A DNA stretch of 64,000 nucleotides, taken from the IMG/VR virus record IMGVR_UViG_3300013006_000018, one strand, 5' to 3'. The notes beneath the pieces were generated by a model. The model had not been told where the DNA came from and searched no databases. It worked only from the letters and a program-made list of their open reading frames with translations. Positions within the stretch are counted from its first letter, which is position 1. Every line of letters starts with the position of its first letter. Below are positions 8,207 to 32,842 of this stretch, in pieces. The position numbers and the translations under genes were made by a program. The DNA comes from a virus.

Positions 8207-8207
8207 C

Positions 8208-8281
8208 TAGCGGGGGCAGGATTTGAACCTGCGACCTTCTGGTTATGAGCCAGCTGAGCTACCGGACTGCTCCACCCCGCA
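8208..8281 (-). tRNA. trnM: tRNA-Met(CAT), initiator-like
   Basis: Cloverleaf; U1xU72 mismatch, A11-U24, anticodon loop CTCATAA. Confidence 0.9.
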
Positions 8282-8296
8282 AGTAAGAGTATAATA

Positions 8297-8893
8297 CTAT
8301 TTAAGCCAAATATAAGCTGGGTCCAATGCATTGGTATCAAGATAATCCCATACCTTCCAATTATTGGTCTTTTTAACAGCTTCCACTAGGTTTGCAAGTA
8401 ATGCATTCAGATCATCAATATGCCATACATCATCAAGTAACTTTTTACCTGTTACCCGAGATTTATGTGCTATATGATCTGAATATGAGTATGCAAAACC
8501 AGTGAAGGGCGGTATCATACAACCCATGGAACAAAGAACCCCTTGCATGCGCGATACAATCTCCTTCCCCCCTACAGAATGCATGGTAACTATGACACTT
8601 ACCGGTTTACCCACTAAATGCTTTTTACCTTCAATCTGAGTCATCTTTTCAAATAACTGTTGCATCGGAGACCCCCAGGAATCCCAATATGTTCCTGAAC
8701 AAAATAATAAGCCATCACTGGTCCTAATAGTCTTACGTGCTCTTAACCAATCGAAACTAGGGGATAGATTTAATACACATACTTTTATAGAAGGATCTAT
8801 TTTTTGGAGTATTTTTCGGATCTTATTAATCAGCTGACCGGTGTTGCCAGAACGACCTCCAAGAGACCCATTTATAATAGAAATCTTCACCAC
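8297..8893 (-). CDS. NAD(P)H-dependent FMN reductase (flavodoxin-like)
   Basis: IINGSLGGRSGNT, SDGLLFCSGTYW and GKPV..VT.HSVGG motifs. Confidence 0.8.
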   Translation of the reverse strand: MVKISIINGSLGGRSGNTGQLINKIRKILQKIDPSIKVCVLNLSPSFDWLRARKTIRTSDGLLFCSGTYWDSWGSPMQQLFEKMTQIEGKKHLVGKPVSVIVTMHSVGGKEIVSRMQGVLCSMGCMIPPFTGFAYSYSDHIAHKSRVTGKKLLDDVWHIDDLNALLANLVEAVKKTNNWKVWDYLDTNALDPAYIWLK

Positions 8894-8944
8894 ATAATGA
8901 TAGTGGAACCCATTTAGTTATCAAGAAAATTATTAAATATAGAT

Positions 8945-9904
8945 ATGGACGTCATTCCTATTAATGTTGGTTTTGTCCCAAATATTATACTATTTGGCAA
9001 TAACTTTCAATATACAAACGGTGTTTTTCTGAGTTCTAATCGTAACACTAATTTGACAAGTGTTTCGGCTTATAACTTCTTTTCAAATGTAAAGCGTCTA
9101 TCTTCTATATGCCCGCCTTTCTCTGGACAAGAAATAAACAATTATACTGTGGTAAATAGTAATACTATCAGTGTTGGATTAACATCTATCACAACCCCAG
9201 GCACCTACGATATTATCATCAAGAACGATGGAGGGTATTTTAAGACATCCTCAGCTAAAACGCTCTTGCTTAAAAGAGATACTTCAATTCCAACTCCTAC
9301 ACCGACTCCTACTCCGACACCAGCACCACCGTCTGCGTGTATTGAAGGTTGGTCATATACAAACTTTCAGGGGGCTACATTTAGGAACGGTGATCCCATT
9401 CCTGAAATTACGGATCAAGAAGCATGGAATACTGCTACAGGTCCAGGTTGGTGTTACTTTGATAATGACCCTGCCAATGATGCTATTTATGGGAAACTTT
9501 ACAACAGGTATGCTGTAGCCGATATCAGGGGGCTAGCTCCTGAAGGCTTCCATATACCAACTCTTGCCGAATGGGTTGATCTAATTACGTGCTTAGGGGG
9601 CTCAGATGCGGGTGGGGGTATATGGCCTGTTGCGGGCGCTAAGATGAAAACAACAGGTACAATTCAAGATGGGGATGGGTTGTGGAATACACCGAATGTT
9701 GCCACAAACGAAAGTCTCTTTTCAGTGGAACCAGCTGGCTGTAGAACAGGTGGTTTCATCAATCTGCACACCAGAGGCAGTTTCTGGGTGTATGATAGTG
9801 ATACCTGTATTAATTTTAATAATGGTGCCTCTTACGTTTATATCGGTGGTGATAGTGCAACAGTTGGTTATTCTATACGCTTAAAAGCAGGGCCCGGTTC
9901 ATAA
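8945..9904 (+). CDS. Ig/IPT-like domain + PT linker + FISUMP (Fib_succ_major) domain protein
   Basis: TFRNGDPIPE...WCYFDND...YGKLYN...LAPEGFHIPT..EW...GYSIR; TAAATA 8934-8939. Confidence 0.8.
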   Translation: MDVIPINVGFVPNIILFGNNFQYTNGVFLSSNRNTNLTSVSAYNFFSNVKRLSSICPPFSGQEINNYTVVNSNTISVGLTSITTPGTYDIIIKNDGGYFKTSSAKTLLLKRDTSIPTPTPTPTPTPAPPSACIEGWSYTNFQGATFRNGDPIPEITDQEAWNTATGPGWCYFDNDPANDAIYGKLYNRYAVADIRGLAPEGFHIPTLAEWVDLITCLGGSDAGGGIWPVAGAKMKTTGTIQDGDGLWNTPNVATNESLFSVEPAGCRTGGFINLHTRGSFWVYDSDTCINFNNGASYVYIGGDSATVGYSIRLKAGPGS

Positions 9905-9909
9905 AAGAA

Positions 9910-9981
9910 CTGCTCGGGTAGGGATCGAACCTACGACCAATGCATTAACAGTGCACCGCTCTACCGCTGAGCTACCGAGCA
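9910..9981 (-). tRNA. trnN: tRNA-Asn(GTT)
   Basis: Cloverleaf, loop CTGTTAA, U1-A72, G73. Confidence 0.93.
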
Positions 9982-9984
9982 ATA

Positions 9985-10067
9985 TGGGCGGAGCTGGATT
10001 CGAACCAGCGAAGGCGTAAGCCAGCAGATTTACAGTCTGCCCCGTTTGGCCACTTCGGTATCCGCCC
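9985..10067 (-). tRNA. trnY: tRNA-Tyr(GTA)
   Basis: Cloverleaf with long variable arm, loop CTGTAAA. Confidence 0.93.
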
Positions 10068-10086
10068 AAAATCTTTTAAAGAACAG

Positions 10087-10171
10087 CGGGCAGAGTAGGA
10101 TTCGAACCCACGGATGCTTTCGCATCAACGGTTTTCAAGACCGTCGCTTTAGACCGCTCAGCCACCTGCCC
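10087..10171 (-). tRNA. trnS: tRNA-Ser(TGA)
   Basis: Long variable arm, loop CTTGAAA, G73. Confidence 0.93.
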
Positions 10172-10176
10172 CGCAT

Positions 10177-10250
10177 CGCACTCACCAGGAATCGAACCTG
10201 GAACCGACGGTTTAGAAAACCGTTGCTCTATCCGGTTGAGCTATGAGTGC
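10177..10250 (-). tRNA. trnR: tRNA-Arg(TCT)
   Basis: Cloverleaf, loop TTTCTAA. Confidence 0.9.
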
Positions 10251-10252
10251 AT

Positions 10253-10325
10253 TGGCGCTGACGGGATTCGAACCCGTGTATGGTCCTTGAAAGGGACCTG
10301 TCCTAGGCCCCTAGACGACAGCGCC
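10253..10325 (-). tRNA. trnE: tRNA-Glu(TTC)
   Basis: Cloverleaf, loop CTTTCAA. Confidence 0.92.
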
Positions 10326-10373
10326 ATTCATATAATCTTATAGGTAAATATTTAAAAGTCAATTTATAAAATG

Positions 10374-10445
10374 AGCCGGTGATCGGGATTGAACCGATGA
10401 CCGACGGTTTACAAAACCGTTGCTCTACCACTGAGCTACACCGGC
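10374..10445 (-). tRNA. trnT: tRNA-Thr(TGT)
   Basis: Cloverleaf, loop TTTGTAA. Confidence 0.93.
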
Positions 10446-10447
10446 AT

Positions 10448-10520
10448 TGGAGGTATGGGGATTCGAACCCCAGACCTATAGCTTGCAAAGCTACCGCTCT
10501 ACCAACTGAGCTATACCCCC
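10448..10520 (-). tRNA. trnA: tRNA-Ala(TGC)
   Basis: Cloverleaf, G3:U70, loop TTTGCAA. Confidence 0.94.
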
Positions 10521-10528
10521 AGTTCATT

Positions 10529-10600
10529 CTGCCAGGCTAGGATTCGAACCTAGAACAGGCAGATCCAAAGTCTGCTGTGCTACCATTGCACCACCTGGCA
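10529..10600 (-). tRNA. trnQ: tRNA-Gln(TTG)
   Basis: Cloverleaf, loop CTTTGGA, U1-A72. Confidence 0.93.
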
Positions 10601-10602
10601 AA

Positions 10603-10674
10603 TAGGCGATAAGGGATTCGAACCCCTGACCCTCTCCGTGTAAGGGAGACGCTCTACCGCTGAGCTAATCGCCT
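10603..10674 (-). tRNA. trnV: tRNA-Val(TAC)
   Basis: Cloverleaf, loop CTTACAC. Confidence 0.93.
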
Positions 10675-10748
10675 GTTAAGAGAGTTTAATAGAAAGAATT
10701 GCAAATGCAATAATTACGTATCCGTTAACCTACTGAAACTGATACTAT

Positions 10749-12338
10749 TTAAAGAGGAGTAATAGCATATTTGTCCATTAGATATGCCTCAACTTCCTGA
10801 ATTTCTGATGTTGTGATCGCTCTATTGTAAAATATAATTTCATAAACATACATTTCTGTAGAAGCTTCTGCATTATATCCACTTCCCTCGCCAAATGGTG
10901 AGGCTCCAATAAAAACAGAGGCGCTATTGGTTTCATTAAGTCCGTAACCATCATTATCACCAGTTCCAACTTGTACTTCTGCTCCATTGTATCTTATGAG
11001 GCCAGAAGAATCTGAAGTGAACTGAGATACTATAATTCTTTTTATATTAACATCATCTCCTGTACCAGTACCATAACTAATACCAGTATCTTGACCATTA
11101 GTACTTTCAAGACTCCCAATAACCCCTCCGTTTACATATATTTGATATTTTCTTCGTTTACTGTCATCATTTGATTTACTGAATACACATGAATTGTTTG
11201 CTCCTGCGCGCACTAGAGTAATTAACGTATATGGACCTGTTAAATTTAGACTTTCGCTTGGTAGAGCCAATATTGATGCGTTAGGATCACCGTAAGTATT
11301 ATTTGCTGTGAATAATAATGCTCCATTAGAAAACGTTGGGAATCCCGTGTTGTCTATGCTTTTTGTAAAGTTTCTAGAATTTCCACTTTGATCCGCCCAA
11401 GCTGATACAACCTCCATCATTACACTTGATGTTGTAATGCTTCCAATAATAGAACCAGAAGGGATTGCTGTAACGGATGTGGTTACTGGATTACCTACAT
11501 CTCGCTCGGAGTTTCCATATACTGCTGTCGGTGCTGGTGCGTCACCATTTTCTGTTACCCAAGCTCCCTCTGGTTGTTGGTTATAGTTTCTATACTGATC
11601 ATTAGGTCCAACAAACCAAAAGTTATCATTATCATCATATGAAATACTTCTGGAGCTAGATGCGGTGAAATTAGAAGATTCAATATCAATCTGACTGTCT
11701 GACCTTGTATATATCCCATTTATTGATGTTGTTCCAGCATTTGAAAGTGTTATTGTGCTAAAATATTCTGCTGGAGTCCAGGCTCCAGCGTAATTACCAG
11801 TAGTATTGTAAGCAATTGCAATGTCGTTTGGTATATATCTGATAGCATTACCGTCTATTAAAAAGTCTCCATTAAGTAGTGCTTCATAATCAGAAGAGTA
11901 AGTATAGGTACCGTTTGCACCTGCATAAATACCAGTAAATCCAGAAATAACAACTTGAGTAAAGTATTGAGAGGATATTGCCCAAGTCTGTCCATCGGAA
12001 GACTCGACATAGGCATAACCAGCACCCGTATCACTTTCTAAAACAAACGCGTTTGCATTCCAATACATATCAAACCCATTTGATGGACCAGAAAAACTAT
12101 AGCTATTGACGTAACCTTCATAAGATGGAACTGATGTTGCCGTATATGTCCCACTTAAGGTGCTTGTTCCAGAAATTATAATTTGTGAGACATAGTTGTA
12201 GGCAGGTGCTTGAATGTTACTTACTCCAGCATCAGCTTTCAACCAGAGGGATAGTCCGGCAATGTTGGTAGGGGAAAAAAGAGTAGAAAACGGCTTGCTG
12301 GAACTACTGATTCCTAGTCCTAAACTAAGGCGAGGCAT
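10749..12338 (-). CDS. LamG/concanavalin-like virion protein with ~270-aa inserted repeat modules
   Basis: SPTNIAGLSLWLKADAGV ... VSAWADQSGN ... EIIFYNRAIT..EIQEVEAYL..KY. Confidence 0.75.
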   Translation of the reverse strand: MPRLSLGLGISSSSKPFSTLFSPTNIAGLSLWLKADAGVSNIQAPAYNYVSQIIISGTSTLSGTYTATSVPSYEGYVNSYSFSGPSNGFDMYWNANAFVLESDTGAGYAYVESSDGQTWAISSQYFTQVVISGFTGIYAGANGTYTYSSDYEALLNGDFLIDGNAIRYIPNDIAIAYNTTGNYAGAWTPAEYFSTITLSNAGTTSINGIYTRSDSQIDIESSNFTASSSRSISYDDNDNFWFVGPNDQYRNYNQQPEGAWVTENGDAPAPTAVYGNSERDVGNPVTTSVTAIPSGSIIGSITTSSVMMEVVSAWADQSGNSRNFTKSIDNTGFPTFSNGALLFTANNTYGDPNASILALPSESLNLTGPYTLITLVRAGANNSCVFSKSNDDSKRRKYQIYVNGGVIGSLESTNGQDTGISYGTGTGDDVNIKRIIVSQFTSDSSGLIRYNGAEVQVGTGDNDGYGLNETNSASVFIGASPFGEGSGYNAEASTEMYVYEIIFYNRAITTSEIQEVEAYLMDKYAITPL

Positions 12339-13689: not shown

Positions 13690-13911
13690 ATGGCAGCAGG
13701 CAAAACAGCAAGTCACGGAAAACCCGGGCATAATACTTCACATCATAAGACACGTTTTATTGGCAATGATAAAGTTACTCCGGTTTTTTATGCAGGACAT
13801 AACTTAAAGCATGGTTCTTATATAGCAGGGCACGTTAACGGTAAAACCGTTGAAGATGCTAATGGTAGGCCTATTCCTTTTAAGCAAATAGGTGAGTTAA
13901 GAGCTGCTTAA
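13690..13911 (+). CDS. Small basic His-rich hypothetical protein
   Basis: ORF; TATATA 5 nt upstream. Confidence 0.55.
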   Translation: MAAGKTASHGKPGHNTSHHKTRFIGNDKVTPVFYAGHNLKHGSYIAGHVNGKTVEDANGRPIPFKQIGELRAA

Positions 13912-15587
13912 TTTTCTCTTCTTAAATCTCTACTGTAGTGCACAAACCGATCGTGCTCTATAGGGGATAATAATAGTATAGCACTTCTAATCATTTTCTC
14001 TTTAGTTTGTTGATATATATATGACATCCATGTTTGTTCGTAGGGGTGTGCCCATTTTACATCAAGAAACATTTTCTGATTTCCTTCTCTTGATACAATC
14101 TGAGGCCAATTACAATAATATATTTCTCCGTCTGCATAGACTAAGGATTGATATGATTTAATGTTATTAAAGCTTGTTCTTGGTGGATTTGGATCTAACC
14201 CAAGCTTAGGTAGTCTTGTTTTAAATGGAAAGTATTCTTCTCTTTTTACCTGTGGTAAATTATACCAAGACCATTGAGTACTATTGTCACCAAAAAATTC
14301 TTTAAAGCTAAGCTTTAAGAAATCATACCCCTCTATATTCATAATAGAAATAACCTTATCAAATATATTTTCTGTATATCTATTAAAACCAAGAGGGCAA
14401 ATTTCTGTAGTTTCGGGAAGAATAAACATATCATCTTCCAAGAAGATACTATAATCACAATCAGTTTCTGCAAAATGCTCAGCGGCAAACTGCCGTCCTC
14501 CACATATACCTATATTATCTTTTTTAATTCTAACAAAGTTATACTTTTCACATAATTCACTATAACGTTCGTTAGTAGAAATATCTGTGCTATTATCAAT
14601 TAAGAAGTTTATCGTATTCGTAATAAATTTATTATGATAGGAATAAGAAATACATAGCTTTTCAAATTGATCTGGTGAATTAAACGTCAATACATAAAGA
14701 GCTACTTTAGCATTTATTATATTCTTTTTGTTAGTTGTTGTTGTTACGATTTTTGTTTTAACGGTATCATTTTTTAAATTTTCAAAGAACATTCCTATTA
14801 GACCGTTATCTTCTAATACAAATCTATCATACATCTCGGGGCGCTGGTGGGCCATGATTGTAAAGATAGATTCTTCTGTTCCCATGTAATCCTCTGAAAG
14901 AGTTTGTTGCAGAAGACCATAGTAATGCCCGTTTGCCTGCTTTATGTGATCAATATTACCGCCAAAGAAACCACCCCGACAAACATACTTTACATAATCA
15001 ATATCACAAAATTTATTCATTCCCTCTCTATCAAATCCATGAATCTCATTACCCCCTTCATAAGGGAAGGAAAGAAATAAGAATTTCTGTAAGATCGATT
15101 CAAGTTTATCTTGCACTTTATCGTGGGTGAAGTAACCTGGGTGTACTGTATTGGTTATACCCCCGTCAATCCATACTAAGTAATCTGATCCAAAGGGATT
15201 AAAGCAAGCTTGATCATGCAACATGAACATCTTGCACATGACCATAGGATTGTACAATTCTAAAGTGGCTTGCGTACTTTGTTTTAACCATTCAACTTGA
15301 TTGGACCAATTAGGATCGAGCCTTATCTTTTGGGCTTGTTTATAGAAATCAAATTTTTCTCGAAATTCATCAATTTCCTTTATATGAACACGGGTGTTTT
15401 CCTTCCTTCTATGCTGCCAAACTAAATCTTCATATTTTTTCTCAATATAAATAGCCATGTTCACATCGGCTTGCATGAGTTTTATAAAATTATCAATATA
15501 ATGTTGAAATGGTCGCTTGAACCCTTCGCCGGCCTGATCCCGACGTAAATCCCAGATACCTGTTACAAATGTTATGTTCTTAGACAT
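13908..15587 (-). CDS. HtrL/YibB-family glycosyltransferase-like domain fused to a GT-A (GT2-like) domain
   Basis: Start reassigned to ATG 15587 (MSKNITFVTG); WIDGG, RGGFFGG, MGTEE; second domain with IDNST, IFLEDD. Confidence 0.75.
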   Translation of the reverse strand: MSKNITFVTGIWDLRRDQAGEGFKRPFQHYIDNFIKLMQADVNMAIYIEKKYEDLVWQHRRKENTRVHIKEIDEFREKFDFYKQAQKIRLDPNWSNQVEWLKQSTQATLELYNPMVMCKMFMLHDQACFNPFGSDYLVWIDGGITNTVHPGYFTHDKVQDKLESILQKFLFLSFPYEGGNEIHGFDREGMNKFCDIDYVKYVCRGGFFGGNIDHIKQANGHYYGLLQQTLSEDYMGTEESIFTIMAHQRPEMYDRFVLEDNGLIGMFFENLKNDTVKTKIVTTTTNKKNIINAKVALYVLTFNSPDQFEKLCISYSYHNKFITNTINFLIDNSTDISTNERYSELCEKYNFVRIKKDNIGICGGRQFAAEHFAETDCDYSIFLEDDMFILPETTEICPLGFNRYTENIFDKVISIMNIEGYDFLKLSFKEFFGDNSTQWSWYNLPQVKREEYFPFKTRLPKLGLDPNPPRTSFNNIKSYQSLVYADGEIYYCNWPQIVSREGNQKMFLDVKWAHPYEQTWMSYIYQQTKEKMIRSAILLLSPIEHDRFVHYSRDLRREN

Positions 15588-15591
15588 CGTT

Positions 15592-16485
15592 TTAATAATT
15601 AGCAAAGATCTTATAAAAGCTATTAGCTTCACCAGAAAGATAACTAGTTCTTTCCCCAGGTGAAAAAAACCACCATAAGTCAAAAAGCTTTAAATCAAAC
15701 ATCTCAGGGAATATTGAATATAGTGCACTTAGTATAGGCTCTTCCGTACCGTACATTTTTTTGTCGATATAGAGGTTTAGCATTTCCTTGTATCTTTCAA
15801 AGAATATATTGTAAATGTCTCTATGACCACCAAATATACCGCCGATGACATGCTTCAACAGCTGTGGTTTATGTTCTAGTTTGTAGTATTCCTGGATCAT
15901 TAGCTCCTGATCGCCCACCATGCCTTGCATAGGGAGAGCACAACTAAATATTTTGCTTAAGTCTAAACTGTCATATATTTTATTTCCAAGAGCAGGCGTA
16001 AACATATTGGTTGTATTATGCGGATAATACCACTCTCTTTTTACTGGTATACGCATCTCTACCCCACCGACCTTCTCCGGAAAGATACCGTGATGCATTA
16101 AACCTGCATCGACCCAGAACGCTACGTCTGAATTAAAATATTTGTTATCAAGTACTTGCTTTACCCAGAACGCTTTTGAATAACAGAGCACTTCATTACG
16201 ATTCTTAGCTACGATACTTTCATATATTTCTTTTTTAAATGCCATGAATTTATCATGAAATTCAAATGCTGAAAGATCTTGTCCAATAACTTTAAAGTCG
16301 TTTATTGCATACTCAGATAGAAATTTTTCTGTTCTCTCGACACTATCATGATCTGTAAATAATACTAAGGGTTTGTTTAGGTTAAGAATGTTTACAAGGG
16401 TGGATTGATAGACGGCTAAATCCCACCCTCTTCCACCATAGATATCACTATCTCTACAACCATATACACAGGTAACTAAAGTCAC
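15592..16485 (-). CDS. HtrL/YibB-family glycosyltransferase-like protein
   Basis: TLVT...PLVLFTD, SKAFWV, FWVDAG, IGGIFGG, GTEE. Confidence 0.75.
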   Translation of the reverse strand: MTLVTCVYGCRDSDIYGGRGWDLAVYQSTLVNILNLNKPLVLFTDHDSVERTEKFLSEYAINDFKVIGQDLSAFEFHDKFMAFKKEIYESIVAKNRNEVLCYSKAFWVKQVLDNKYFNSDVAFWVDAGLMHHGIFPEKVGGVEMRIPVKREWYYPHNTTNMFTPALGNKIYDSLDLSKIFSCALPMQGMVGDQELMIQEYYKLEHKPQLLKHVIGGIFGGHRDIYNIFFERYKEMLNLYIDKKMYGTEEPILSALYSIFPEMFDLKLFDLWWFFSPGERTSYLSGEANSFYKIFANY

Positions 16486-16514
16486 TTAATAATTTATTTT
16501 TACTGTATAGGTTT

Positions 16515-17126
16515 TCAAGATAATATTCGCTTACACTCTTGAATAAAGATATCTTGTCTTTCTTGTTTGCGTACTTCAAAACAATGAAACGTATTATTTG
16601 AATAATGTGTGCCGATTCCAAATTCAAAATTATAAAACCCTGTATTACATTTCCAGAGCGGTATTAAGCATTTCTCAGGAAATGAAAAAACAATTTCTAT
16701 ATTTTTAATGCGGGTAATAATTGAAAATCTTTCTGCAACGTCAATTTCTTTATCTTCATAGAAGCCGCCACAAAAGGAGTCACATTCCACCTTGTTATAG
16801 GTATATTTTGTAAAGTTTAAAAAGCTAGGAGCGACATAAGGGTATGAGTTAGATGTTTGTGCATTTCCATATATACATGGGCTTTTATTGATGATACTCT
16901 TTGCTTCGTCAAAAACACCTGCACTAGTAGGGATAAGATCCACATCGAGAATAGAGATTGAATCCCACTCTTCCTTTTTTAAGAAAGTTTCTATAGCTTC
17001 ATGATGGTGTGTTTGGAAGGGTACTTGAAGTAAAGGAATATTAAATTTTTCAAAGACTTTCTTTTGATACGAAGCAATTTCACTGTTTAAATCGTTTTTA
17101 TAAAACGATACTGTTTTATGTATCAT
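16515..17126 (-). CDS. Putative GT-A glycosyltransferase
   Basis: ILDVDLIP DxD motif; position within the operon. Confidence 0.5.
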   Translation of the reverse strand: MIHKTVSFYKNDLNSEIASYQKKVFEKFNIPLLQVPFQTHHHEAIETFLKKEEWDSISILDVDLIPTSAGVFDEAKSIINKSPCIYGNAQTSNSYPYVAPSFLNFTKYTYNKVECDSFCGGFYEDKEIDVAERFSIITRIKNIEIVFSFPEKCLIPLWKCNTGFYNFEFGIGTHYSNNTFHCFEVRKQERQDIFIQECKRILS

Positions 17127-17877
17127 AATTTATTTGTATCCATTTCTCCGGGTATATGTCGGTTGTATTGAAGTTATTATAACCTATGCCAAACCATTTA
17201 CTACGGGTAGGGCATATTATTTTTTTGTTTAGGTTTTTATTTAAATATGCAGCCCACCAGCTGAAGGTAGAATTACATATAATATTATCTTGACATAAAG
17301 ACATTAAAACAAAATCTTCATGAGGCTGTAATGAATAGAAATCGCAATCTATATCTCTAAAAGCTTCTTTACACCATTCTATATCATCTGAAAAGACGCT
17401 AAACTTCTTACAGCTTGTTTGTTCGATAGCTTTTAAAAAGTAGTTTCTTGGAGTAACCGGATGAAAGTCTTGTTGTGTGAGGTAATCGGTTCTTCTTACA
17501 TGAATACTGCATGTAGAGCCTATAGAAGGATAAAGCTCCTGGAGTTTAACCAGATCATCTTTAAAAGCAAAAATTTCAAATATTTCGTCTTTAATATTAG
17601 AAAAGAATTTTTCACTTTGATAGTAGCCTAGGAATTCATGAGAACCGTCCAGGATGATATCATAATAGTTCCATTGTAGTTGACTGTATGTTTTACTAGG
17701 TAGCGCTGTTATAATGGGAAGTGTATTTTTAAATATATGATTGACGTTTAAATCAAAATGCGTACCGTAGCTTAAATTGTTTTTTTTTGCTGTAGCTATG
17801 GTAGCAGCTATCTGAAATAGCTTATTACCGAAGCGGCCGTTCCTATCGTTGAAAACCAGGGTTTGTGACATTTTCAA
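17116..17877 (-). CDS. Alpha-1,2-fucosyltransferase (GT11)
   Basis: GRFGNKLFQ, GYYQSEKFF, SIHVRRTDY, FSDDIEWC, NSTFSWWAAYL. Confidence 0.9.
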   Translation of the reverse strand: MKMSQTLVFNDRNGRFGNKLFQIAATIATAKKNNLSYGTHFDLNVNHIFKNTLPIITALPSKTYSQLQWNYYDIILDGSHEFLGYYQSEKFFSNIKDEIFEIFAFKDDLVKLQELYPSIGSTCSIHVRRTDYLTQQDFHPVTPRNYFLKAIEQTSCKKFSVFSDDIEWCKEAFRDIDCDFYSLQPHEDFVLMSLCQDNIICNSTFSWWAAYLNKNLNKKIICPTRSKWFGIGYNNFNTTDIYPEKWIQINYDT

Positions 17878-18691
17878 ATATTTTTTGTTTATAATTCATA
17901 TTATCATGAATATCAGTAACATCGAATCTATCCTTATGATTTAATGTAAGAATATTAAAAATTAACTCTTCTGAAGGTATGACATTATCAAGCATAAACT
18001 TTTTATATAGATCCCAGTACGGATTATAGAATTCATTTAATACGTCCTTATGCCCGCCCCAGAAGAATCCAAATATACATTTATTGAGATCAATACTGTT
18101 ATTAACAACAGAATAATTGTCTATATTGAATCTCCATAATTGCGATATGTTAGGCCCACCGAGTCTATAGATTAGAAATTTATTCTTCGAGAGTCTACTT
18201 GCTAAATTCTCAGAAAACATCTCACTATTTTCTTGTGTATTCAAATCACAGAGCATCCCAGCTGTAAATTGGCAATCAGCCCAGACAAAGTACTCTGAAT
18301 TAAACGGGTTCCGTTCCATAGCATCCTTTATCAAGTAATACTTCATTAAAACTAAAGGTGCATAATGCATTAGTAAGTTTATAATACCATTCTTATAAAC
18401 TTCCGGTTCTTTATATTTCTCAAGAAAGAGATCTTTCTCTATTAATTTTTCCATTAAAAGTTCTTTCGTCCAAGGGATACTCACAAAATTTGATTCATTT
18501 CTATTATCGGGAATATACACATCTGTAAAGGAATTGTATGAAACGAGTGGAAGGTAAGTATCTAAATTTTTTCTATAACCGCTCTCATATATAGAAAAGT
18601 CTCGTCTGAAAAGAGGATGCTCAATTTTATCCCTATCCAAATTTGTACAGCAGGTGACGTATGTAACTTTATGAGTCATATCTACGGCCAA
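17843..18691 (-). CDS. HtrL/YibB-family glycosyltransferase-like protein
   Basis: TYVT..NLDR, NPFNSEYFVWAD, GFFWGG, PSEE. Confidence 0.7.
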   Translation of the reverse strand: MAVDMTHKVTYVTCCTNLDRDKIEHPLFRRDFSIYESGYRKNLDTYLPLVSYNSFTDVYIPDNRNESNFVSIPWTKELLMEKLIEKDLFLEKYKEPEVYKNGIINLLMHYAPLVLMKYYLIKDAMERNPFNSEYFVWADCQFTAGMLCDLNTQENSEMFSENLASRLSKNKFLIYRLGGPNISQLWRFNIDNYSVVNNSIDLNKCIFGFFWGGHKDVLNEFYNPYWDLYKKFMLDNVIPSEELIFNILTLNHKDRFDVTDIHDNMNYKQKIFENVTNPGFQR

Positions 18692-19436
18692 ACTTCACGT
18701 TGTTCACTTCATAGTATTTATCTGTATAGACTGGAATGTGATAGAAAGGGTCATTTAAATTTTTTGCGTGGCCTAGATGGACTGGGCCTTTGTTAGTTTT
18801 TGTATACCACGCTTGCTTGTTTTTTATACGCATCAATGCTTCGTCATCTTCTGCACCCCAGGTTAGAAATTGCTCATTAAACCCGCCTACGTCTTTTAAG
18901 GCTTTTGTACCACAAATAAAGAAGCCGCCCATGGTTCCAAAGCCGGCGCTGTGTCTATAGTTGAAGTTACCATTAAGAACATTAGATTCTATATCTTCAA
19001 ACTTCTCATTGTTTAGATTAAAATCTATAAATTGATACCTCTTTTCTAATGCAATATCTATCAATTGGTATGTAAAGACAGCGTTCTGTTCATAAGACGC
19101 GACAACATCTTCCTTGAACTCATTATAATAGCTTTTATGAAAGTAACAATCCGAATCAATAATAGCAAATACGTCTGTATCGTTTTCAGTATGGTTTAAT
19201 GCATAGTTAATCTTTTTGCTTCTTTGATAGTATTGCTCATTTAACGGGATGTGAATCGAATCGTCAATATTTTTGTTGACAGAGAAATCGAACAAAAAGC
19301 ATTTTGAAGGTATGCCGTTACTATTTAAAAAAGAAACAAGATCTTTACTTCTGTTCCAACAAAATTTGGTATTTTCTAGGCGTACGGGATCACCGTTATC
19401 CCAGAACAGCATGTTGAGAGAAAATGAGGGAGCCAC
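18669..19436 (-). CDS. Galactosyltransferase-like GT-A enzyme (GT2/GT7 C-terminal)
   Basis: IIDSDC DxD motif; VGGFNEQFLTWGAEDDE. Confidence 0.8.
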   Translation of the reverse strand: MAPSFSLNMLFWDNGDPVRLENTKFCWNRSKDLVSFLNSNGIPSKCFLFDFSVNKNIDDSIHIPLNEQYYQRSKKINYALNHTENDTDVFAIIDSDCYFHKSYYNEFKEDVVASYEQNAVFTYQLIDIALEKRYQFIDFNLNNEKFEDIESNVLNGNFNYRHSAGFGTMGGFFICGTKALKDVGGFNEQFLTWGAEDDEALMRIKNKQAWYTKTNKGPVHLGHAKNLNDPFYHIPVYTDKYYEVNNVKFGRRYDS

Positions 19437-19440
19437 TCTT

Positions 19441-20694
19441 TCAGCTTACTACATTAGCAAGAGCCCCTGTAATAGGATCTTGCCAACCTTTTGAAATACT
19501 ATGAGGCCAAACAATCCAGCTAGACGGCGTTACTTCCGTATTAAATTCACGCCACACTTTGCAATACTTATCCGGGTCGTTAAACATACGCTCGATCTCT
19601 TCCTTATCAGCATCTTTCCTATACAAGTCATTACCATCTTTATCCTTAAACGCTACACACCAGAAATCGTAATCCTTGTGAGGTACCTTATCATATCCCA
19701 CATCAATGCAATGCTTGAATATCCGGAGGAAGGACTTTTCCCAGTCTGCTTCGGAAGCGTAATTATACGGGTTAGGAGCGAGTTCATTATCTATAGTATA
19801 TTTTTGAACTGCTCTCTTCTTAAAGTGTAAGCCGGCATACCTTTCGTAATCACGTAGTGTGCGCTTCTTACCGAAGCCATACTTACTAAAGTCAGCATCT
19901 CTTTTTTCACCATCCATTTCAAACAGTTTTCTATTACGTAAATGGCATCTATTATTTTTTTCAACCCAGTTCTTATCATCATCCCACTGCTTGGTACGGC
20001 CCTTACGAGTATATTCATGCCATATAACAACACGATGAGGATGAAACAAATCATAACCATGGGTATAAGCACGAACTGCAATACTTATTTCCTCTCCGTG
20101 AAAGTAATATTCCGGATCGTGGGGTACTTCTTTGCAGAACTTACCTAATGTAAAGCAAAAATGAGCAGAGTAAAATCTCGCTGGAATTGGCTCATTTCTT
20201 TGTTGAAAATCATCTATAGATGCAGGTAGGAAGAAAACAGCTCCTTCAGGAATAAACCTATCAAAATTCATCTTCCAAGGTATCTGAATACGCGCAGCAG
20301 GGTCATTATCCGGATCAAAACTAGGAATATAACCGGTTAAAAGAGGCTTCTTATGTCCCTTCTTTTTTAGTTGCTTAATCATCTTAATTAAAATATCATC
20401 CCAATCCTGTACAAAGCGGTGATGGCTATCTAGCTGTAAAGTATAATCTTCATCTTTATAATACTGTTGAATCATATTACGAGCCCAGCAGGTGCCTTGG
20501 CTCTTTTCAAAGGGTACATCTAAAAAGATAAATCTCTCATCATCCTTAAACTTACTAATATCATCTTTATCATCGTGCTGCCAGCAAACACAAATCTTTA
20601 ATTCATCCGGGAATTTAGCTTTTGCTACTAAATCTGTGAGGGTAGGAATTAACTGAGGGTCTCTATAAGAGGCTATCTGTACAAATATCGACAT
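19441..20694 (-). CDS. GT60-family protein O-alpha-GlcNAc transferase (Gnt1/OGNT-like)
   Basis: IFVQIASYRDP, SQGTCWARN, LQLDSHHRF..DWD, SAHFCF, VPHDP..FHGEE..AVRAYTHGYDLF, WHEY, RTLRDYERYAG. Confidence 0.88.
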   Translation of the reverse strand: MSIFVQIASYRDPQLIPTLTDLVAKAKFPDELKICVCWQHDDKDDISKFKDDERFIFLDVPFEKSQGTCWARNMIQQYYKDEDYTLQLDSHHRFVQDWDDILIKMIKQLKKKGHKKPLLTGYIPSFDPDNDPAARIQIPWKMNFDRFIPEGAVFFLPASIDDFQQRNEPIPARFYSAHFCFTLGKFCKEVPHDPEYYFHGEEISIAVRAYTHGYDLFHPHRVVIWHEYTRKGRTKQWDDDKNWVEKNNRCHLRNRKLFEMDGEKRDADFSKYGFGKKRTLRDYERYAGLHFKKRAVQKYTIDNELAPNPYNYASEADWEKSFLRIFKHCIDVGYDKVPHKDYDFWCVAFKDKDGNDLYRKDADKEEIERMFNDPDKYCKVWREFNTEVTPSSWIVWPHSISKGWQDPITGALANVVS

Positions 20695-23156: not shown

Positions 23157-23378
23157 TTACGCTTGCGGGTTTGGAGGTGTGTTAGCTTTTGACAGTTCCT
23201 TCCAAATAGCTTCTATATATCTTGACTTTAAATTGGCCTTTGCACAGCTACTGCAACCTGTTGTAGTTAGATTTGTCAATTCGTCATTATACTTCTTACG
23301 TATTTCTTCACACATAGGAATATCGCTTGGACAAGGCTTACTGCTATCAAAGAATGTATCTATAAGCTGCGTATTCAT
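23157..23378 (-). CDS. 4-Cys miniprotein A
   Basis: PCP-x5-C...GCSSC; paralog of 30553..30768; TATAAATA upstream. Confidence 0.65.
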   Translation of the reverse strand: MNTQLIDTFFDSSKPCPSDIPMCEEIRKKYNDELTNLTTTGCSSCAKANLKSRYIEAIWKELSKANTPPNPQA

Positions 23379-24049
23379 GTAAAGTTATTTATATCGGCTA
23401 GAGCTAAAAGACCACTGTGTTTACCATATTGTAGATCAAAGACAATATTCTTGTTACTGTAGTGATTACAAAGCTTTAGTAGTCGTTTGTCCAGATTAAT
23501 GCTTGTTGTTTGTTTATAAATTTCAAAATCAAAGATGTTACTTACCCAAAAGTATATATCGTCCTGTACTACAGGAAGCACTTCAAAATTTTTAATTAGA
23601 TCAAGATGTATAAATTCTTTTTCGACTTCCAGAAATTTATCCCATGCCTTTAAGAATAATTTTTTTGATTGAAACCAGGTCTTGATCGTAGTATCTAATT
23701 TTTGGTCATAATATGATAAGTCTAGAGAGTTAACATCGGTCTTAAAGATTGAGTCATAATATATGTTTTTAAAACCACGCACTACACCAGACATGTTACA
23801 GCCTTTAAAATTAGCGATAAAATATTTATAAAATTCTAGTTGTGTAAGACTAATATCAAAGAAGAACATCTTCTTAAAATTTTGACCTTCAGAAATTTTA
23901 ACTGGCTTAAAGCCACAAGAAGGGCCAATAAAAATATTATATTTCTTAGTTGTAGAATACACAGGTTCAGAATTAAAAACTCTCGCATAGTCGTTTAATT
24001 TAAGAAGCTGAATAGAATAAGGCGCAGTTTTATATTTCTCTAAATTCAT
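23375..24049 (-). CDS. Hypothetical protein, possibly methyltransferase-like Rossmann fold
   Basis: IGPSCGF, FFDIS, HLDLI, WVSNIF pattern. Confidence 0.45.
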   Translation of the reverse strand: MNLEKYKTAPYSIQLLKLNDYARVFNSEPVYSTTKKYNIFIGPSCGFKPVKISEGQNFKKMFFFDISLTQLEFYKYFIANFKGCNMSGVVRGFKNIYYDSIFKTDVNSLDLSYYDQKLDTTIKTWFQSKKLFLKAWDKFLEVEKEFIHLDLIKNFEVLPVVQDDIYFWVSNIFDFEIYKQTTSINLDKRLLKLCNHYSNKNIVFDLQYGKHSGLLALADINNFT

Positions 24050-25344
24050 ACTTTCCCATTAAAATTCATATAGCTATTTACCATATGCTTAAAATCACTC
24101 AAATCACTCTTAATAATGCTATCTAACCATTTCTCGGTAAAATACATATTGTCTTTTCTTTTCGTTAGCTCATCATTAAAGACATTTATATTTAAATTAT
24201 GTAGTCTAGATAACTCTGAAAGAAAATTATATTTCTCCGGAGACATTGCTCTTAGTTTGTCCAATACATTCATATCTTGTGTCTCGATCCTGCGCTTATG
24301 TGTCTTTTTAAAGAAGTCTATGACATCCATAAGCGAGTTGTAATTTTCGTTTTTTGGTAGAAATTTATTTATAATAGAAATATTTGTCTCGTAGAAATCG
24401 GTAATACTTTTTAGTTCCCTAGCTCCTAACGCCTCTATAGATAATTCGTTGGGGTTATTAACATGATGAAAGTAAATCTTTGCATCATGCTTGTTAGCAA
24501 AGATTATTAAATTGATTAAATCCGTAGCATTTGTAGTGCAGATAACAGAAGAAATATAAAAGTTCTTCTTTCTCTTTGTCAGGACAGTGTTAAATTTTTT
24601 ACAATTCTCGCTGACAATTGCAAAAGAAGCATTTTTTCTAATTTCTTCATAGACTTGTTTGGTGCCGCCATCTATCGATACACTCAAATTAATGTTAAGC
24701 TTATTAAGGATTTGCTCGGTCTTATTTGAAAAAACAGTTCCGTTAGTTTGAATATAAAGCTCTGCAGTAGACTTGTTCTTTAATAGAATATCAAATATTT
24801 TGTCATAAATAGAGATTAAGAATGGTTCTCCGCCAAAGAAGTTTATTTGTTTAGCATTTAAAACAAAAGGTGTTATTTCGTTTATAAAGCTTTCAGTATT
24901 ATATGGAGAATTATAGGCAGGCATTTTTTCCCTATTTTTTCTTATAGAAGAAGAAAATTTACCGCTACACATGATACATTCTAGATTGCATTTATTATCT
25001 AATTCTAAATCTAGCTTATAAGGATATTTCAAGTCCCTATAATCTCCTTCCATATCGTACTGCGGTATTTTAAGTAATTTAAATTTCTCTAGATTTAAAA
25101 AATATTCACATGCAAAACATCCTTTCTTAAAAGAGAAGCTATCGACTTCTTTTCTTATGCTCTTGTATTTTTCACCATTCCAAATCTCTTCTAACGTTTG
25201 TTCAGGGTATCTTCCAACCTCATAATACCTATTCGCGCAGCATACCGTTGCAGCACCATTATGACCGAGGTATAAGTTTGTATGTGGGGCGTGACAGAGT
25301 GTACCAATACTCTTTCTTCTAGAAAGAAACTCAGTCTTAGTCAT
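24046..25344 (-). CDS. Radical SAM protein with N-terminal SPASM/twitch domain
   Basis: CNLECIMC; GGEPF; TNGT; SIDG; N-terminal C..P...VCC...EIWNG...CFAC. Confidence 0.88.
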   Translation of the reverse strand: MTKTEFLSRRKSIGTLCHAPHTNLYLGHNGAATVCCANRYYEVGRYPEQTLEEIWNGEKYKSIRKEVDSFSFKKGCFACEYFLNLEKFKLLKIPQYDMEGDYRDLKYPYKLDLELDNKCNLECIMCSGKFSSSIRKNREKMPAYNSPYNTESFINEITPFVLNAKQINFFGGEPFLISIYDKIFDILLKNKSTAELYIQTNGTVFSNKTEQILNKLNINLSVSIDGGTKQVYEEIRKNASFAIVSENCKKFNTVLTKRKKNFYISSVICTTNATDLINLIIFANKHDAKIYFHHVNNPNELSIEALGARELKSITDFYETNISIINKFLPKNENYNSLMDVIDFFKKTHKRRIETQDMNVLDKLRAMSPEKYNFLSELSRLHNLNINVFNDELTKRKDNMYFTEKWLDSIIKSDLSDFKHMVNSYMNFNGKV

Positions 25345-25888
25345 TGACTTTAAAACTCAAGGAAAGTGAAATTTTTGATGAGTTAGAAAAATTGTATACT
25401 GAATGCATTTTAAAAAGATCAAAAATAATATAATCACCTGGGGTTTTTATTGTTTTATATTCATTCTCTGTTTCGTACAAGCAATAGTTATCAAGTTCGT
25501 TCAAAAGAACATGAAAAATATGAAAATTATCTTTTTCATGTTTATGTCTAGGAAAGTAAGATTGGTTATTTAAAATACAGAAGTTGACTGTGTAAATTTG
25601 AAATTTTTCACTAATATTAGATTGTATGCAGGATAGTGTCAGGGGATAAGTTTTTGCTGTTTTTTGTGTGAGGAGATCCGTATTATCGAATATGGGAATT
25701 GAGACCCACGGTATTGTATTCTTCTCGTTACTATTAAACACAGCAACATCATCTTTACCATTGTTCTTATAATAGTACTTTACAAATAACGACGAGTCAT
25801 TTTTTACAAATTCATCTAAGAAAACTGCATGTTGTGATTGTATTTCTTTTAGGAAAGGAAAATCTTCAACAGAATAGAAACAACTCAT
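25337..25888 (-). CDS. Aspartyl/asparaginyl beta-hydroxylase-like cupin
   Basis: PRHKH ... IFD...HSVYN.S. Confidence 0.7.
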   Translation of the reverse strand: MSCFYSVEDFPFLKEIQSQHAVFLDEFVKNDSSLFVKYYYKNNGKDDVAVFNSNEKNTIPWVSIPIFDNTDLLTQKTAKTYPLTLSCIQSNISEKFQIYTVNFCILNNQSYFPRHKHEKDNFHIFHVLLNELDNYCLYETENEYKTIKTPGDYIIFDLFKMHSVYNFSNSSKISLSLSFKVND

Positions 25889-25890
25889 TA

Positions 25891-26361
25891 TTATAAGAGG
25901 TTTGTTTTATCGACTGCTTTAAAAAAACGGTTAGCCTGTACGAGCGACTTTATATTCGGAATTTTTTCTAATTTTAGTCTAAAAATTGTACCTTCTTGAA
26001 ATGGAGAATTTTCGTGCGCGATTTTTACTGTCGCATTTGCATAAAAGATGTCTTTTTCCATTAAATCCTTAATCTTTATCTTGGTCTGAAATGCGTCTTT
26101 TTCATCACAGCTACATGTATTTGTACTGTATAGATAGTTGTCAATAATTTTAAAAGCTAGTTTAAAGTTATCTTTCTTCTGACTAAACGTTTTAACTTTT
26201 TTATTTTCTATTAAACAATAGCAATACTTGTTTTCCATATGCTTCTTCTCACTTCTTACGTCACATGTGCTCGGGTCTATAATTTTCTTGACTTTACAAG
26301 TGTCTACATCAATCATGGTAATCTTAAAAAAGACACAGTTTACTTTAATATTGTTTTTCAT
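25891..26361 (-). CDS. Cys-containing hypothetical protein
   Basis: ORF within the operon. Confidence 0.5.
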   Translation of the reverse strand: MKNNIKVNCVFFKITMIDVDTCKVKKIIDPSTCDVRSEKKHMENKYCYCLIENKKVKTFSQKKDNFKLAFKIIDNYLYSTNTCSCDEKDAFQTKIKIKDLMEKDIFYANATVKIAHENSPFQEGTIFRLKLEKIPNIKSLVQANRFFKAVDKTNLL

Positions 26362-26365
26362 TTCG

Positions 26366-27202
26366 TCAGTATAGATTTTTTTCTAATTTAGTTGTAAATT
26401 TATGATAGTTTTCGTATCTCTCTTTTGCAACTATAGTTCGGTTACAGTTAATATCTTCTTTTTTATTTGGATTGTAGTTTAAGAGTATCTCGGGGGTCAT
26501 TTCAAGTTCTTCCAACCCATTCTGTGTCTGTTGGTAAATAAATAATTTTTCCGACTTAGGTATAATCCCTAGTCCGATGGCTATTCTCATATTATGATTT
26601 ACAGGTGTTGAGACAGAGCCATGTACTACACGTGGATACATTGTAATAACATCACCTGCATCTAGGGGCAGTAATATTTTTGATCTCTTTAAAAGCTCCT
26701 CCTTATAGTTGTTGAGCCTTAAAGTGAAATCTATACCCCGTATGAAGTTTAAGAGTGTTTTATGGGTCTCAGGTACTACATACAGCGGCGCGGTTTTTTC
26801 ATCGAGGTCATCCAGAGCGAACCATACAGTAAGAGATGATGTTTCCAGAGACTCTCTTACCAGAGAAATATCTTGATGTACCTTACACTCATTGTCGCCA
26901 CCCGGGTATTTAACAATATAATTACCTACTGAAATTTTATAATCTGAAAAGTTACTCTCTATAAATGGGGTAAGGCTTTTTAATAAAAATTGGTATACAT
27001 CACGTTTATAGTCAAGATTTTCACTCATAGCCGTGTTAACGTGAGTTATGTTTTTATCAATATATTTTTGTAGATTAGAGCTTTTAAAGGTTGATAGGTA
27101 ATATTGTTTTAAATCTGCTAATACTGTTTTTGATATACTATTTTTTAGTATAACAAACCCGTCGTCCAATAAACACTTATTAAGTTTTTTATCTAGTAGC
27201 AT
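26366..27202 (-). CDS. Phytanoyl-CoA dioxygenase (PhyH)-family 2OG-Fe(II) oxygenase
   Basis: DGFVILKN, VHQD, WFALDD, VPETH, AGD...VVHGS. Confidence 0.85.
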   Translation of the reverse strand: MLLDKKLNKCLLDDGFVILKNSISKTVLADLKQYYLSTFKSSNLQKYIDKNITHVNTAMSENLDYKRDVYQFLLKSLTPFIESNFSDYKISVGNYIVKYPGGDNECKVHQDISLVRESLETSSLTVWFALDDLDEKTAPLYVVPETHKTLLNFIRGIDFTLRLNNYKEELLKRSKILLPLDAGDVITMYPRVVHGSVSTPVNHNMRIAIGLGIIPKSEKLFIYQQTQNGLEELEMTPEILLNYNPNKKEDINCNRTIVAKERYENYHKFTTKLEKNLY

Positions 27203-27215
27203 AATATTATTAAAT

Positions 27216-27223
27216 TATAAATA
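27216..27223 (+). promoter_or_regulatory. T4-type late promoter TATAAATA, 5 nt before GTG 27229
   Basis: Exact T4 late consensus. Confidence 0.65.
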
Positions 27224-27228
27224 ATTAT

Positions 27229-27780
27229 GTGAATTACTTAGATTTCAATGCGTTTGCTTGTCCATATATCTATATAAGTACAAGATATTATTGTAATAGG
27301 GGGTTGACATACTTTGAGAATTCTGATACAAGCTTTGAGTTATCTAGATATATTCTAACTAAGAAGGATTATGTAGGTAATACTTATTTTGACTACGAAA
27401 TGAAATCACTTGTACCGTCTAATGTTGAAGGTGGCGGAGATAGCAGCTTTCGTCTAATGCATATTCCAGAGAAGAAAATACTTTTAACCATTGAACAAGG
27501 TATAATTATAGAAGATTCTATTTTAGCGGATTTAGAAAGTAACGAGGAATATATAAATATTGTCCTAACTAACAGTGGTGCTTTTATAACAGGGGAACTC
27601 CAGCAATGCGGTGTAGGTATTTATAAAGTTAAATATACATACAAGAACAATGAAGCCGTAACTGACGACAACTCTATTAATTGTGAAAGTCGAATATTTT
27701 TATCAGATACCAATATTGAACCGGCTTTTGATAGCGAAGGCTATATTCTTCCTGCATCTAATTTAGCAAGCCCGATTTAA
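27229..27780 (+). CDS. Hypothetical late protein
   Basis: ORF with GTG start directly after the late box. Confidence 0.6.
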   Translation: MNYLDFNAFACPYIYISTRYYCNRGLTYFENSDTSFELSRYILTKKDYVGNTYFDYEMKSLVPSNVEGGGDSSFRLMHIPEKKILLTIEQGIIIEDSILADLESNEEYINIVLTNSGAFITGELQQCGVGIYKVKYTYKNNEAVTDDNSINCESRIFLSDTNIEPAFDSEGYILPASNLASPI

Positions 27781-27794
27781 CTAACTTTGTAAAA

Positions 27795-28484: not shown

Positions 28485-28529
28485 TCTATATATATTAATT
28501 GAAGTGAGATATAATTCAAATTGTATGCA

Positions 28530-30481: not shown

Positions 30482-30552
30482 AGCCTTAAAATGTGAGCTA
30501 GTATTAATAGGAATTATATTTAACTCAAAACTATATTGTGCAATATGGCATC

Positions 30553-32828: not shown

Positions 32829-32842
32829 AATATTATATTATA

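Follow-up and report, generated by a model that had tools for sequence, protein, structure and literature searches.

What would a virus glycosylate with an enzyme set of its own? The question is raised by a cluster of seven genes at positions 13908-20694 of IMG/VR virus record IMGVR_UViG_3300013006_000018, which begins with a glycosyltransferase of family GT60 and ends with a two-domain glycosyltransferase. The window, meaning the whole analysed stretch of 64,000 nucleotides, covers part of the genome of a large myovirus that is uncultured and distantly T4-like. It contains an array of transfer RNA (tRNA) genes, several genes for tail fibres and, at 60689-62542, a gp6-like gene of the baseplate wedge. 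A nucleotide search returned no match for the cluster among cultured phages. The answer favoured here is that the cluster is probably a phage-encoded, cytoplasmic system for mucin-type O-glycosylation of proteins, with the phage's own proline- and threonine-rich (Pro/Thr) stalks as predicted acceptors. An earlier reading made from the letters of the DNA (the sequence-only reading) had proposed that the phage may glycosylate these stalks in the cytoplasm. Comparative evidence, consisting of co-occurrence, gene adjacency, the fold of GT60, the glycoproteins of phage XacN1 and the tails of VgrG proteins, speaks for that core of the proposal; the sugar sequence that accompanied it was not supported.

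Seven minus-strand open reading frames (ORFs) fill the cluster, with junctions that range from a 35-nucleotide overlap to a 29-nucleotide gap and no terminator-like site on that strand inside it, and the tightly coupled seven-gene operon seen earlier is thereby borne out. The first gene (19441-20694) encodes the GT60-family polypeptide glycosyltransferase of 417 residues, the proposed initiating enzyme (PF11397, E 2.5e-75). It is followed by genes of a variable cassette, namely a GT-A glycosyltransferase of the Glyco_transf_7C or GT2-like type (18669-19436; PF02709, E 2e-9, its GT2_2 match being under the Pfam cut-off), an HtrL_YibB-like putative transferase (17843-18691; PF09612, E 2e-4, 21.4 bits, below the 24.1-bit cut-off), a GT11-family putative alpha-1,2-fucosyltransferase (17116-17877; PF01531, E 5.6e-28, 98.5 bits against a 23.9-bit cut-off) and a second HtrL_YibB-like putative transferase (15592-16485; PF09612, E 4e-6, 27 bits, above the cut-off). 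The GT11 match spans profile positions 98-297 of 298, the N-terminal third being missing. Between the GT11 gene and the second HtrL_YibB-like gene lies an ORF of 203 residues (16515-17126). The last gene, 13908-15587 within an ORF of 13908-15683, encodes the conserved partner of GT60, a two-domain glycosyltransferase composed of an HtrL-like GT-A and a GT2-like GT-A domain, whose N-terminal half matches PF09612 (E 7e-10, 39.4 bits). Most family labels of the sequence-only reading were therefore upheld by Pfam (GT60, GT11, GT7C, and HtrL for 15592-16485 and 13908-15683), and the HtrL label of 17843-18691, a paralogue of the N-terminal domain of the two-domain transferase, remains sub-threshold. 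The 203-residue ORF had been labelled a DxD glycosyltransferase; it has no match in Pfam or the PDB, nor any homologue in the 80 related loci described below, and the label is not supported. No membrane-spanning or signal-peptide-like segment was found in the cluster transferases when the probably untranslated N-terminal extension of the last gene is set aside.

For the proposed initiating enzyme, the GT60 identity was confirmed by profile search, with 254.6 bits against the 21-bit cut-off of PF11397. The DSH triplet (DxH motif), residues 88-90 of the phage enzyme, is unchanged in all 24 sequences compared. According to the AlphaFold2 (AF2) model (predicted local distance difference test, pLDDT, 83.6; predicted template modelling score, pTM, 0.80), the top 29 structural matches are all catalytic domains of polypeptide N-acetylgalactosaminyltransferases (ppGalNAc-Ts), with Z of 17-20.2 and a root-mean-square deviation of 3.6-3.9 A over 250-270 residues; the generic GT-A enzyme SpsA reaches Z 16.3 over 215 residues. 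The structural alignments hardly extend into a conserved beta-rich C-terminal domain (about residues 325-416). The GT60 enzymes characterised so far transfer alpha-N-acetylglucosamine (alpha-GlcNAc) to polypeptides; some start mucin-type O-glycans, in Dictyostelium and T. cruzi, and others act on Skp1 (PMC8724618, PMC6939170). The absence of a C-terminal ricin-type lectin domain sets the family apart from GT27 (PMC8724618).

The second element of the proposed system is the set of acceptors. A scan of all ORFs in the window found exactly seven Pro/Thr ORFs, the same seven that had been listed earlier as carrying TPT repeats without a signal peptide, and neither a signal-peptide-like nor a membrane segment was present in their products. 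Their tracts comprise 1,106 residues, including 425 Thr, 88 serine (Ser) and 247 Pro, and the codon pattern of T-P-T-x-T-P-T gave 33 matches, compared to 0 in 100 shuffles. All are situated among baseplate and fibre genes. On the plus strand are a stalk protein of 198 residues (2137-2733, tract 2176-2445), a second one (2730-3572, tract 2790-3086) whose C-terminal part matches phrog_24956, and a protein in which a short (TP)n linker (9260-9355) is joined to a Fib_succ_major head (8945-9904; PF09603, E 1.8e-23). On the minus strand, a stalk with a LamG-like domain (44680-46716, tract 44977-45234; PF13385, E 9.6e-9), a stalk of three tracts with an RCC1 beta-propeller head (47406-50156; PF25390, E 4.6e-49) and an 849-residue protein with two tracts and a C-terminus like that of a baseplate wedge or tail-fibre connector (53620-56169; phrog_677, E 1.5e-12) are found, together with an almost pure Pro/Thr stalk whose translation has 357 residues, 37% of them Thr (56184-57257).

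Several additional features of these proteins were observed. The non-repeat part of the 53620-56169 protein contains an HExxH motif of metalloprotease-like type, a short similar domain follows the Pro/Thr tracts in this protein and in that of 2137-2733, and the ORFs at 53620 and 56184 have similar N-terminal peptides. ARAGORN, run over the whole window, reported ten tRNA genes at 9909-10674 and 8207-8282, which include tRNA-Thr(UGU) and no tRNA-Pro, and no transfer-messenger RNA. ACA makes up 60% of the Thr codons in the seven Pro/Thr ORFs, and the Thr content of these ORFs is 18%, compared to 7% in other late genes. The phage tRNA-Thr(UGU) may therefore support translation of the stalks.

Does GT60 accompany such tracts in other viruses? 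Of 44 viral records with GT60, 38 contain the tract pattern, as do all 10 of those at least 90% complete, and the reversed pattern used as control gave values near 0. Among 25 arbitrary viral contigs, tracts occurred in 2 and GT60 in 1; the sole GT60 contig had the stronger tract signal (18 matches versus 6), with tracts 1-4 kilobases (kb) to either side of the gene. Relatives collected through the gp6-like protein (n = 24) show the same association, as the 14 without tracts, including a complete 230-kb genome, all lack GT60, and tracts are present in each of the 3 with GT60. GT60 was found in 14 of 38 arbitrarily sampled tract-positive contigs, and in none of 37 tract-negative ones. Fisher tests gave p = 2.8e-5 and p = 9e-11, values that are descriptive only since the samples are not independent. 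The co-occurrence of GT60 with Pro/Thr genes across phages, which the sequence-only reading had put forward as a check, was thus found. A recognisable gp6-like homologue is present in only 2 of 13 near-complete GT60 phage genomes, and the gp6 family, at 39-51% identity, includes lineages with both GT60 and tracts as well as lineages with neither. This distribution implies that many lineages and more than one evolutionary event are involved.

Physical linkage can also be seen. In 13 related loci the cluster has a Pro/Thr-stalk ORF of the same strand at a distance of 30-57 nucleotides, and 10 of these loci have one at each end. The heads of the adjoining stalk proteins are RCC1 propellers, as in 47406-50156, or P-domains.

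The scan of viral contigs identified at least 202 stretches that encode close relatives of this GT60, and 80 loci were examined. GT60 was present in all 80 and the two-domain transferase in 74, and the pair is either adjacent or encloses 3-7 kb of variable genes. The remaining genes of the cluster are rare in this set: homologues of GT11, the GT7C-like enzyme and the HtrL-like protein of 15592-16485 were found in 1, 6 and 15 loci, respectively. In their place relatives possess GT10, GT2, GT31-like, RXYLT1/GT47-like and PLOD-type transferases, FkbM and other methyltransferases, and carbamoyltransferases. The genes flanking the cluster are not conserved in related loci, and none of those compared, which reach the edge of an AT-rich island (23375-25344), has a homologue near GT60 in relatives. 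The layout is that of a glycan pathway whose first enzyme and its partner are fixed and whose middle diversifies. The sequence-only reading had taken gene order to mirror assembly of a GlcNAc-Gal-Fuc chain. As the middle genes are an unconserved, variable cassette, there is no basis for reading the order in this way, and family matches do not reveal sugar specificity; gene order as assembly order was rejected on the GT11 and GT7C-like counts.

These same families suggest another purpose, the remodelling, during infection, of a glycan on the host surface (lipopolysaccharide, lipooligosaccharide or capsule). GT11 and HtrL_YibB families are known from O-antigen and lipooligosaccharide loci (PMC10327509, PMC4172580), HtrL_YibB genes from those of the lipooligosaccharide outer core (PMC10327509), and host-glycan remodelling is the usual reading of the glycosyltransferase islands of cyanomyoviruses (PMC12801897). 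However, no characterised GT60 uses a lipid-linked acceptor (PMC8724618, PMC6939170), and no polyprenyl-phosphate (lipid-carrier) transferase, flippase, polymerase or ligase was detected in the genes scanned, which covered the cluster and most of its surroundings. Remodelling would also leave unexplained the association with Pro/Thr proteins in phages, and with VgrG tails and extracellular contractile injection system (eCIS) loci in bacteria. Its chances appear small.

Among cultured phages, a GT60 match was found only in XacN1, Xoo-sp13, RAS14 and the RAS14 relative CM1. In the first three, jumbo phages that infect Xanthomonas and Stenotrophomonas, identity is 45-49% for GT60 and 38-42% for the two-domain transferase, and the pair encloses a carbamoyltransferase and an HtrL-like gene. 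Tract matches number 51 in XacN1, 51 in Xoo-sp13 and 22 in RAS14; those of XacN1 belong to a six-gene paralogue family and to large proteins adjoining the tail-sheath genes. ORF232-237 and ORF369-372 of XacN1 carry T-P-T-x tracts. ORF334 of XacN1 is the GT60 homologue (47% identity) and ORF330 the two-domain transferase (42%). At least two glycoprotein bands in XacN1 virions are Schiff-positive, and its authors proposed ORF328 and ORF334 as makers of glycoproteins, naming neither family nor acceptors (PMC5852040).

The position of the XacN1 module near DNA polymerase and RNase H genes would also fit a role in hypermodifying phage DNA with glycans against restriction. Phage transferases, including multi-sugar systems, do act on hydroxymethylated bases (bioRxiv 2023.12.21.572611). 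In the window, however, the cluster sits among structural genes and no base-hydroxymethylation gene was seen beside it. The DNA-glycosylation literature searched, including the same preprint, mentions neither GT60, PF11397, HtrL nor carbamoyltransferase. Moreover, the GT60 fold is closest to polypeptide transferases, and the Pro/Thr association would be without explanation. DNA as the target is accordingly regarded as highly improbable.

Protein glycosylation by this family would extend to the bacterial setting, if the gene neighbourhoods are a guide. At least 147 bacterial relatives of the phage GT60 were found. In Burkholderiales (Ralstonia sp. 25C, Paraburkholderia, Trinickia, Achromobacter and Burkholderia), about 4 kb separate GT60 from the gene of a type VI secretion VgrG spike, and in 15 of 15 loci the C-terminal tail of VgrG is a Pro-Thr or Pro-Ser repeat. 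The repeats differ by species, with (TP)n of about 70 units as the longest, (PTEPP)n and (PSEEP)n. Examples of VgrG with a long repeat tail are the product of 8270-11134 in the Ralstonia sp. 25C locus (L440, NZ_CP196737) and those of loci L462, L466, L470, L442 and others. The GT60 of these loci is a short form that matches residues 1-323 only, without the phage C-terminal domain. Two of the Burkholderiales loci were scanned with Pfam: Ralstonia sp. 25C has TssE and TssF, and Paraburkholderia ferrariae has an Rhs effector between VgrG and GT60.

In five Sphingomonas loci GT60 comes directly after the gene of a protein that has a Pro/Thr-rich tract. The one analysed in detail, from Sphingomonas sp. 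BE123 (L475, 2441-13209), contains two tandem GT60 genes inside an eCIS locus with eCIS_core and contractile-injection tape-measure domains; they come after a 1,186-residue protein with a Pro/Thr/Ala-rich tract, a hydrophobic segment and an Rv2525c-like glycoside-hydrolase domain. Contraction and cytoplasmic assembly are common to phage tails, type VI secretion machines and eCIS particles, which fits soluble transferases and acceptors without signal peptides.

On long contigs, the cellular homologues nearest to GT60 come from Cytophagaceae, Arcticibacterium and Jiulongibacter (56-58% identity; L409, L410, L417). Together with the Fib_succ_major head of 8945-9904, these are weak hints of a Bacteroidota host. 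The cluster of Jiulongibacter sediminis (L417, 946-11148) contains two GT60s, a Pro/Thr-tract protein with a hydrophobic N-terminus, a carbamoyltransferase and an FkbM-HtrL-glycosyltransferase fusion, as well as UDP-glucose dehydrogenase and an enzyme of the UDP-sugar epimerase/dehydratase family (short-chain dehydrogenase/reductase, SDR).

What does the conserved partner contribute? Homologues of the two-domain transferase align from about residue 33 of its ORF, so the gene probably starts at the ATG at 15587, which gives 559 residues and lies 4 nucleotides after the preceding gene. The AF2 model (pLDDT 82) has two tandem GT-A domains by fold, the C-terminal half being the second, GT2-like one. 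Invariant positions are E416-D417-D418 in the C-terminal domain and W171-x-D173, the only invariant motif of the N-terminal domain; the latter domain was placed among viral HtrL_YibB clusters of a protein atlas with a score of 0.97. The best fold matches are two-domain enzymes that glycosylate proteins or polymers, namely LH3, Mimivirus R699, LARGE1, K4CP, COLGALT1 and PmHS2. LARGE1, the chondroitin polymerase K4CP and PmHS2 have tandem GT-A domains like the phage protein (Foldseek E 1e-8 to 1e-10), although at 8-11% identity and with global template modelling scores (TM-scores) of 0.21-0.27. The substrate of LARGE1 is a glycan on dystroglycan's mucin-like domain, which it extends. From the modelled fold, polymerase activity of the phage protein is a possibility, and the LARGE1-like fold together with the Jiulongibacter cluster gives rise, by analogy, to the idea of a product that would be a uronic-acid-containing polymer.

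Fusions bear on the pairing as well. In Vicinamibacterales and Myxococcales, the ORF that contains GT60 has, in addition, a match to the whole two-domain partner or to part of it; this provides independent support for cooperation between both proteins. GT60 is also located within far longer ORFs (at least 820 residues) in some phages and bacteria, as at 15212-15970 of a 310.7-kb viral record (G080) and in loci L435, L436, L441 and L455.

Besides the lipooligosaccharide ties of HtrL_YibB, a number of points weigh against glycosylation of the stalks. The stalk genes of the window are 4-36 kb away from the cluster and do not adjoin it. As to the timing of expression, the T4-type late promoter TATAAATA has 19 matches versus 16.7 expected, none of them ahead of the GT60 gene; sigma-70-like sites and terminators in the window were likewise not above shuffles. 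Sequence and profile searches of the PDB gave chance-level matches only, for GT60 as for the two-domain transferase, so that the folds are taken from AF2 models, and, as the phage GT60 clade has no sequence-level match to a solved structure, its donor and acceptor have to be deduced from remote relatives. The co-occurrence counts come from small, arbitrary samples whose members are not independent in phylogenetic terms. Pro/Thr tracts are common as flexible linkers, and 5 of 8 near-complete tract-positive viral genomes have no GT60, which indicates that such tracts do not require glycosylation. In the XacN1 virions, carry-over of lipopolysaccharide can also give Schiff-positive staining.

The genomes with tracts and no GT60, and the unnamed proteins behind the XacN1 bands, lead to the most serious rival: the cluster would act on a protein other than the Pro/Thr tracts, for example capsid, tail tube or host proteins, and the tracts would be plain linkers common in the same large phages. 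A precedent is found in mycobacteriophages, whose glycans are on the capsid and on tail-tube C-termini (summary in PMC12619734). On this view there would be little reason for stalk genes to stand within 57 nucleotides of the cluster in related loci, for every Burkholderiales VgrG examined to end in a Pro-Thr or Pro-Ser repeat, or for GT60 to be absent from all tract-negative records. The GT60 fold is also nearest to enzymes that act on Ser/Thr/Pro-rich mucin peptides. A different protein target is for these reasons considered unlikely.

Returning to the stalks as acceptors, we infer what is modified, with which sugars, in which order and to what advantage for the phage as follows. GT60, in this scheme a retaining GT-A enzyme that has a DxH metal site and the build of a polypeptide GalNAc-transferase, would add the first sugar, most likely an N-acetylhexosamine (HexNAc) such as alpha-GlcNAc, to Thr or Ser of T-P-T-x tracts. 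The acceptors would be tail and baseplate appendage proteins, modified during their synthesis in the host cytoplasm; soluble transferases and acceptors lacking signal peptides fit modification there before virion assembly. The two-domain transferase (13908-15587) would then extend the primer by two sugars or by a repeating unit, and the intervening variable genes would decorate the glycan, giving a lineage-specific coat on the stalks. Stiffening, shielding from proteases or predators, and adhesion are conceivable benefits; the functions in display and shielding suggested for such a glycocalyx are speculation.

A route through hydroxyproline, also suggested in the sequence-only reading, is probably not the general mechanism: just 4 of 13 near-complete GT60 phage genomes have the prolyl-hydroxylase-type domain PF13640, 3 of them above the cut-off. 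No domain of this type was found among the window ORFs scanned. Near the cluster, the AT-rich island (23375-35317) encodes a radical SAM/SPASM enzyme, three Asp/Asn-hydroxylase-like (AspH-like) cupins, a PhyH dioxygenase, two methyltransferases, a GT8 and an asparagine-synthetase-like protein. These enzymes could tailor proteins or glycans.

Compared with known systems, the proposed one shares features of its enzymes with protist pathways. The protist GT60s, the Dictyostelium mucin-type enzyme and OGNT of T. cruzi, belong to the same Pfam and CAZy family and use Ser/Thr/Pro-rich acceptors, while the phage enzyme differs by its phage and bacterial setting, its extra C-terminal beta-rich domain and the lack of a consistent prolyl hydroxylase. 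In the cytoplasmic Skp1 pathway, GT60 (Gnt1) is followed by PgtA, a two-domain GT74+GT2 enzyme (PMC8724618, PMC6939170), and the phage GT60 likewise has a two-domain partner. By analogy this parallel is suggestive; the C-terminal domain of the phage partner is GT2-like and its N-terminal domain HtrL_YibB-like, and a literature search returned no paper that relates HtrL_YibB to GT74. The acceptors also differ, being long repeats on virion appendages in the phage and one residue in Skp1. The GT27 polypeptide GalNAc-transferases are the best structural match (Z up to 20.2), share the DxH motif and act on dense Thr/Ser/Pro tracts. Unlike these Golgi membrane proteins, the phage GT60 is soluble and cytoplasmic, with 12-15% identity to them and no alignable ricin-type lectin domain.

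With respect to viruses, mycobacteriophages (Freeman et al. 2023) resemble the proposal in that they use transferases of their own, in the cytoplasm, on their own structural proteins. The differences are the modified sites (capsid and tail-tube C-termini) and the actinobacterial hosts, and no GT60 or mucin-like stalks are on record for them. XacN1 is the nearer case, with GT60 and the two-domain transferase around a small cassette, many T-P-T-x tracts and Schiff-positive virion proteins (PMC5852040). It differs in belonging to a Rak2-like jumbo phage lineage and in having a carbamoyltransferase in its cassette, and its authors did not recognise GT60, the conserved pair or Pro/Thr acceptors (PMC5852040). 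Giant viruses (the PBCV-1 capsid, Mimivirus fibrils, and R699 and collagen-type enzymes) have virus-encoded surface glycosylation, independent of the host, with clade-variable gene sets as well, but infect eukaryotic hosts and use other initiating chemistry and acceptors.

A wider generalisation is offered tentatively and with somewhat less than even confidence. GT60 and its partner may be a general cytoplasmic mucin-type system for the Pro-Thr/Ser appendages of contractile injection machines (phage fibres, VgrG and eCIS), widespread in bacteria and large phages, with hypervariable cassettes under diversifying selection, and may be a prokaryotic relative of the eukaryotic enzymes that initiate mucin-type and Skp1 glycosylation. 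A literature search found nothing relevant on GT60 in phages, on O-glycosylated Pro/Thr-rich phage proteins or on glycosylated VgrG.

Self-glycosylation by phages has so far been documented for mycobacteriophage capsids and tail tubes, and the mucin-type system, if real, would be a second and mechanistically different form. It would also be very widespread, given more than 7,600 GT60 homologues in metagenomes (E <1e-10) besides the viral contigs reported above. The bacterial contexts suggest that the same chemistry is applied to type VI spikes and eCIS particles, which was unreported in the literature searched, and the system would provide a soluble, bacterial-type enzyme set for producing mucin-like glycoproteins in the cytoplasm. 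If phage fibres indeed carry dense, lineage-variable O-glycans, this would bear on the adhesion of large aquatic and soil phages, on their resistance to proteases and grazers, on the evasion of antibodies and lectins, and on the presentation of receptor-binding heads.

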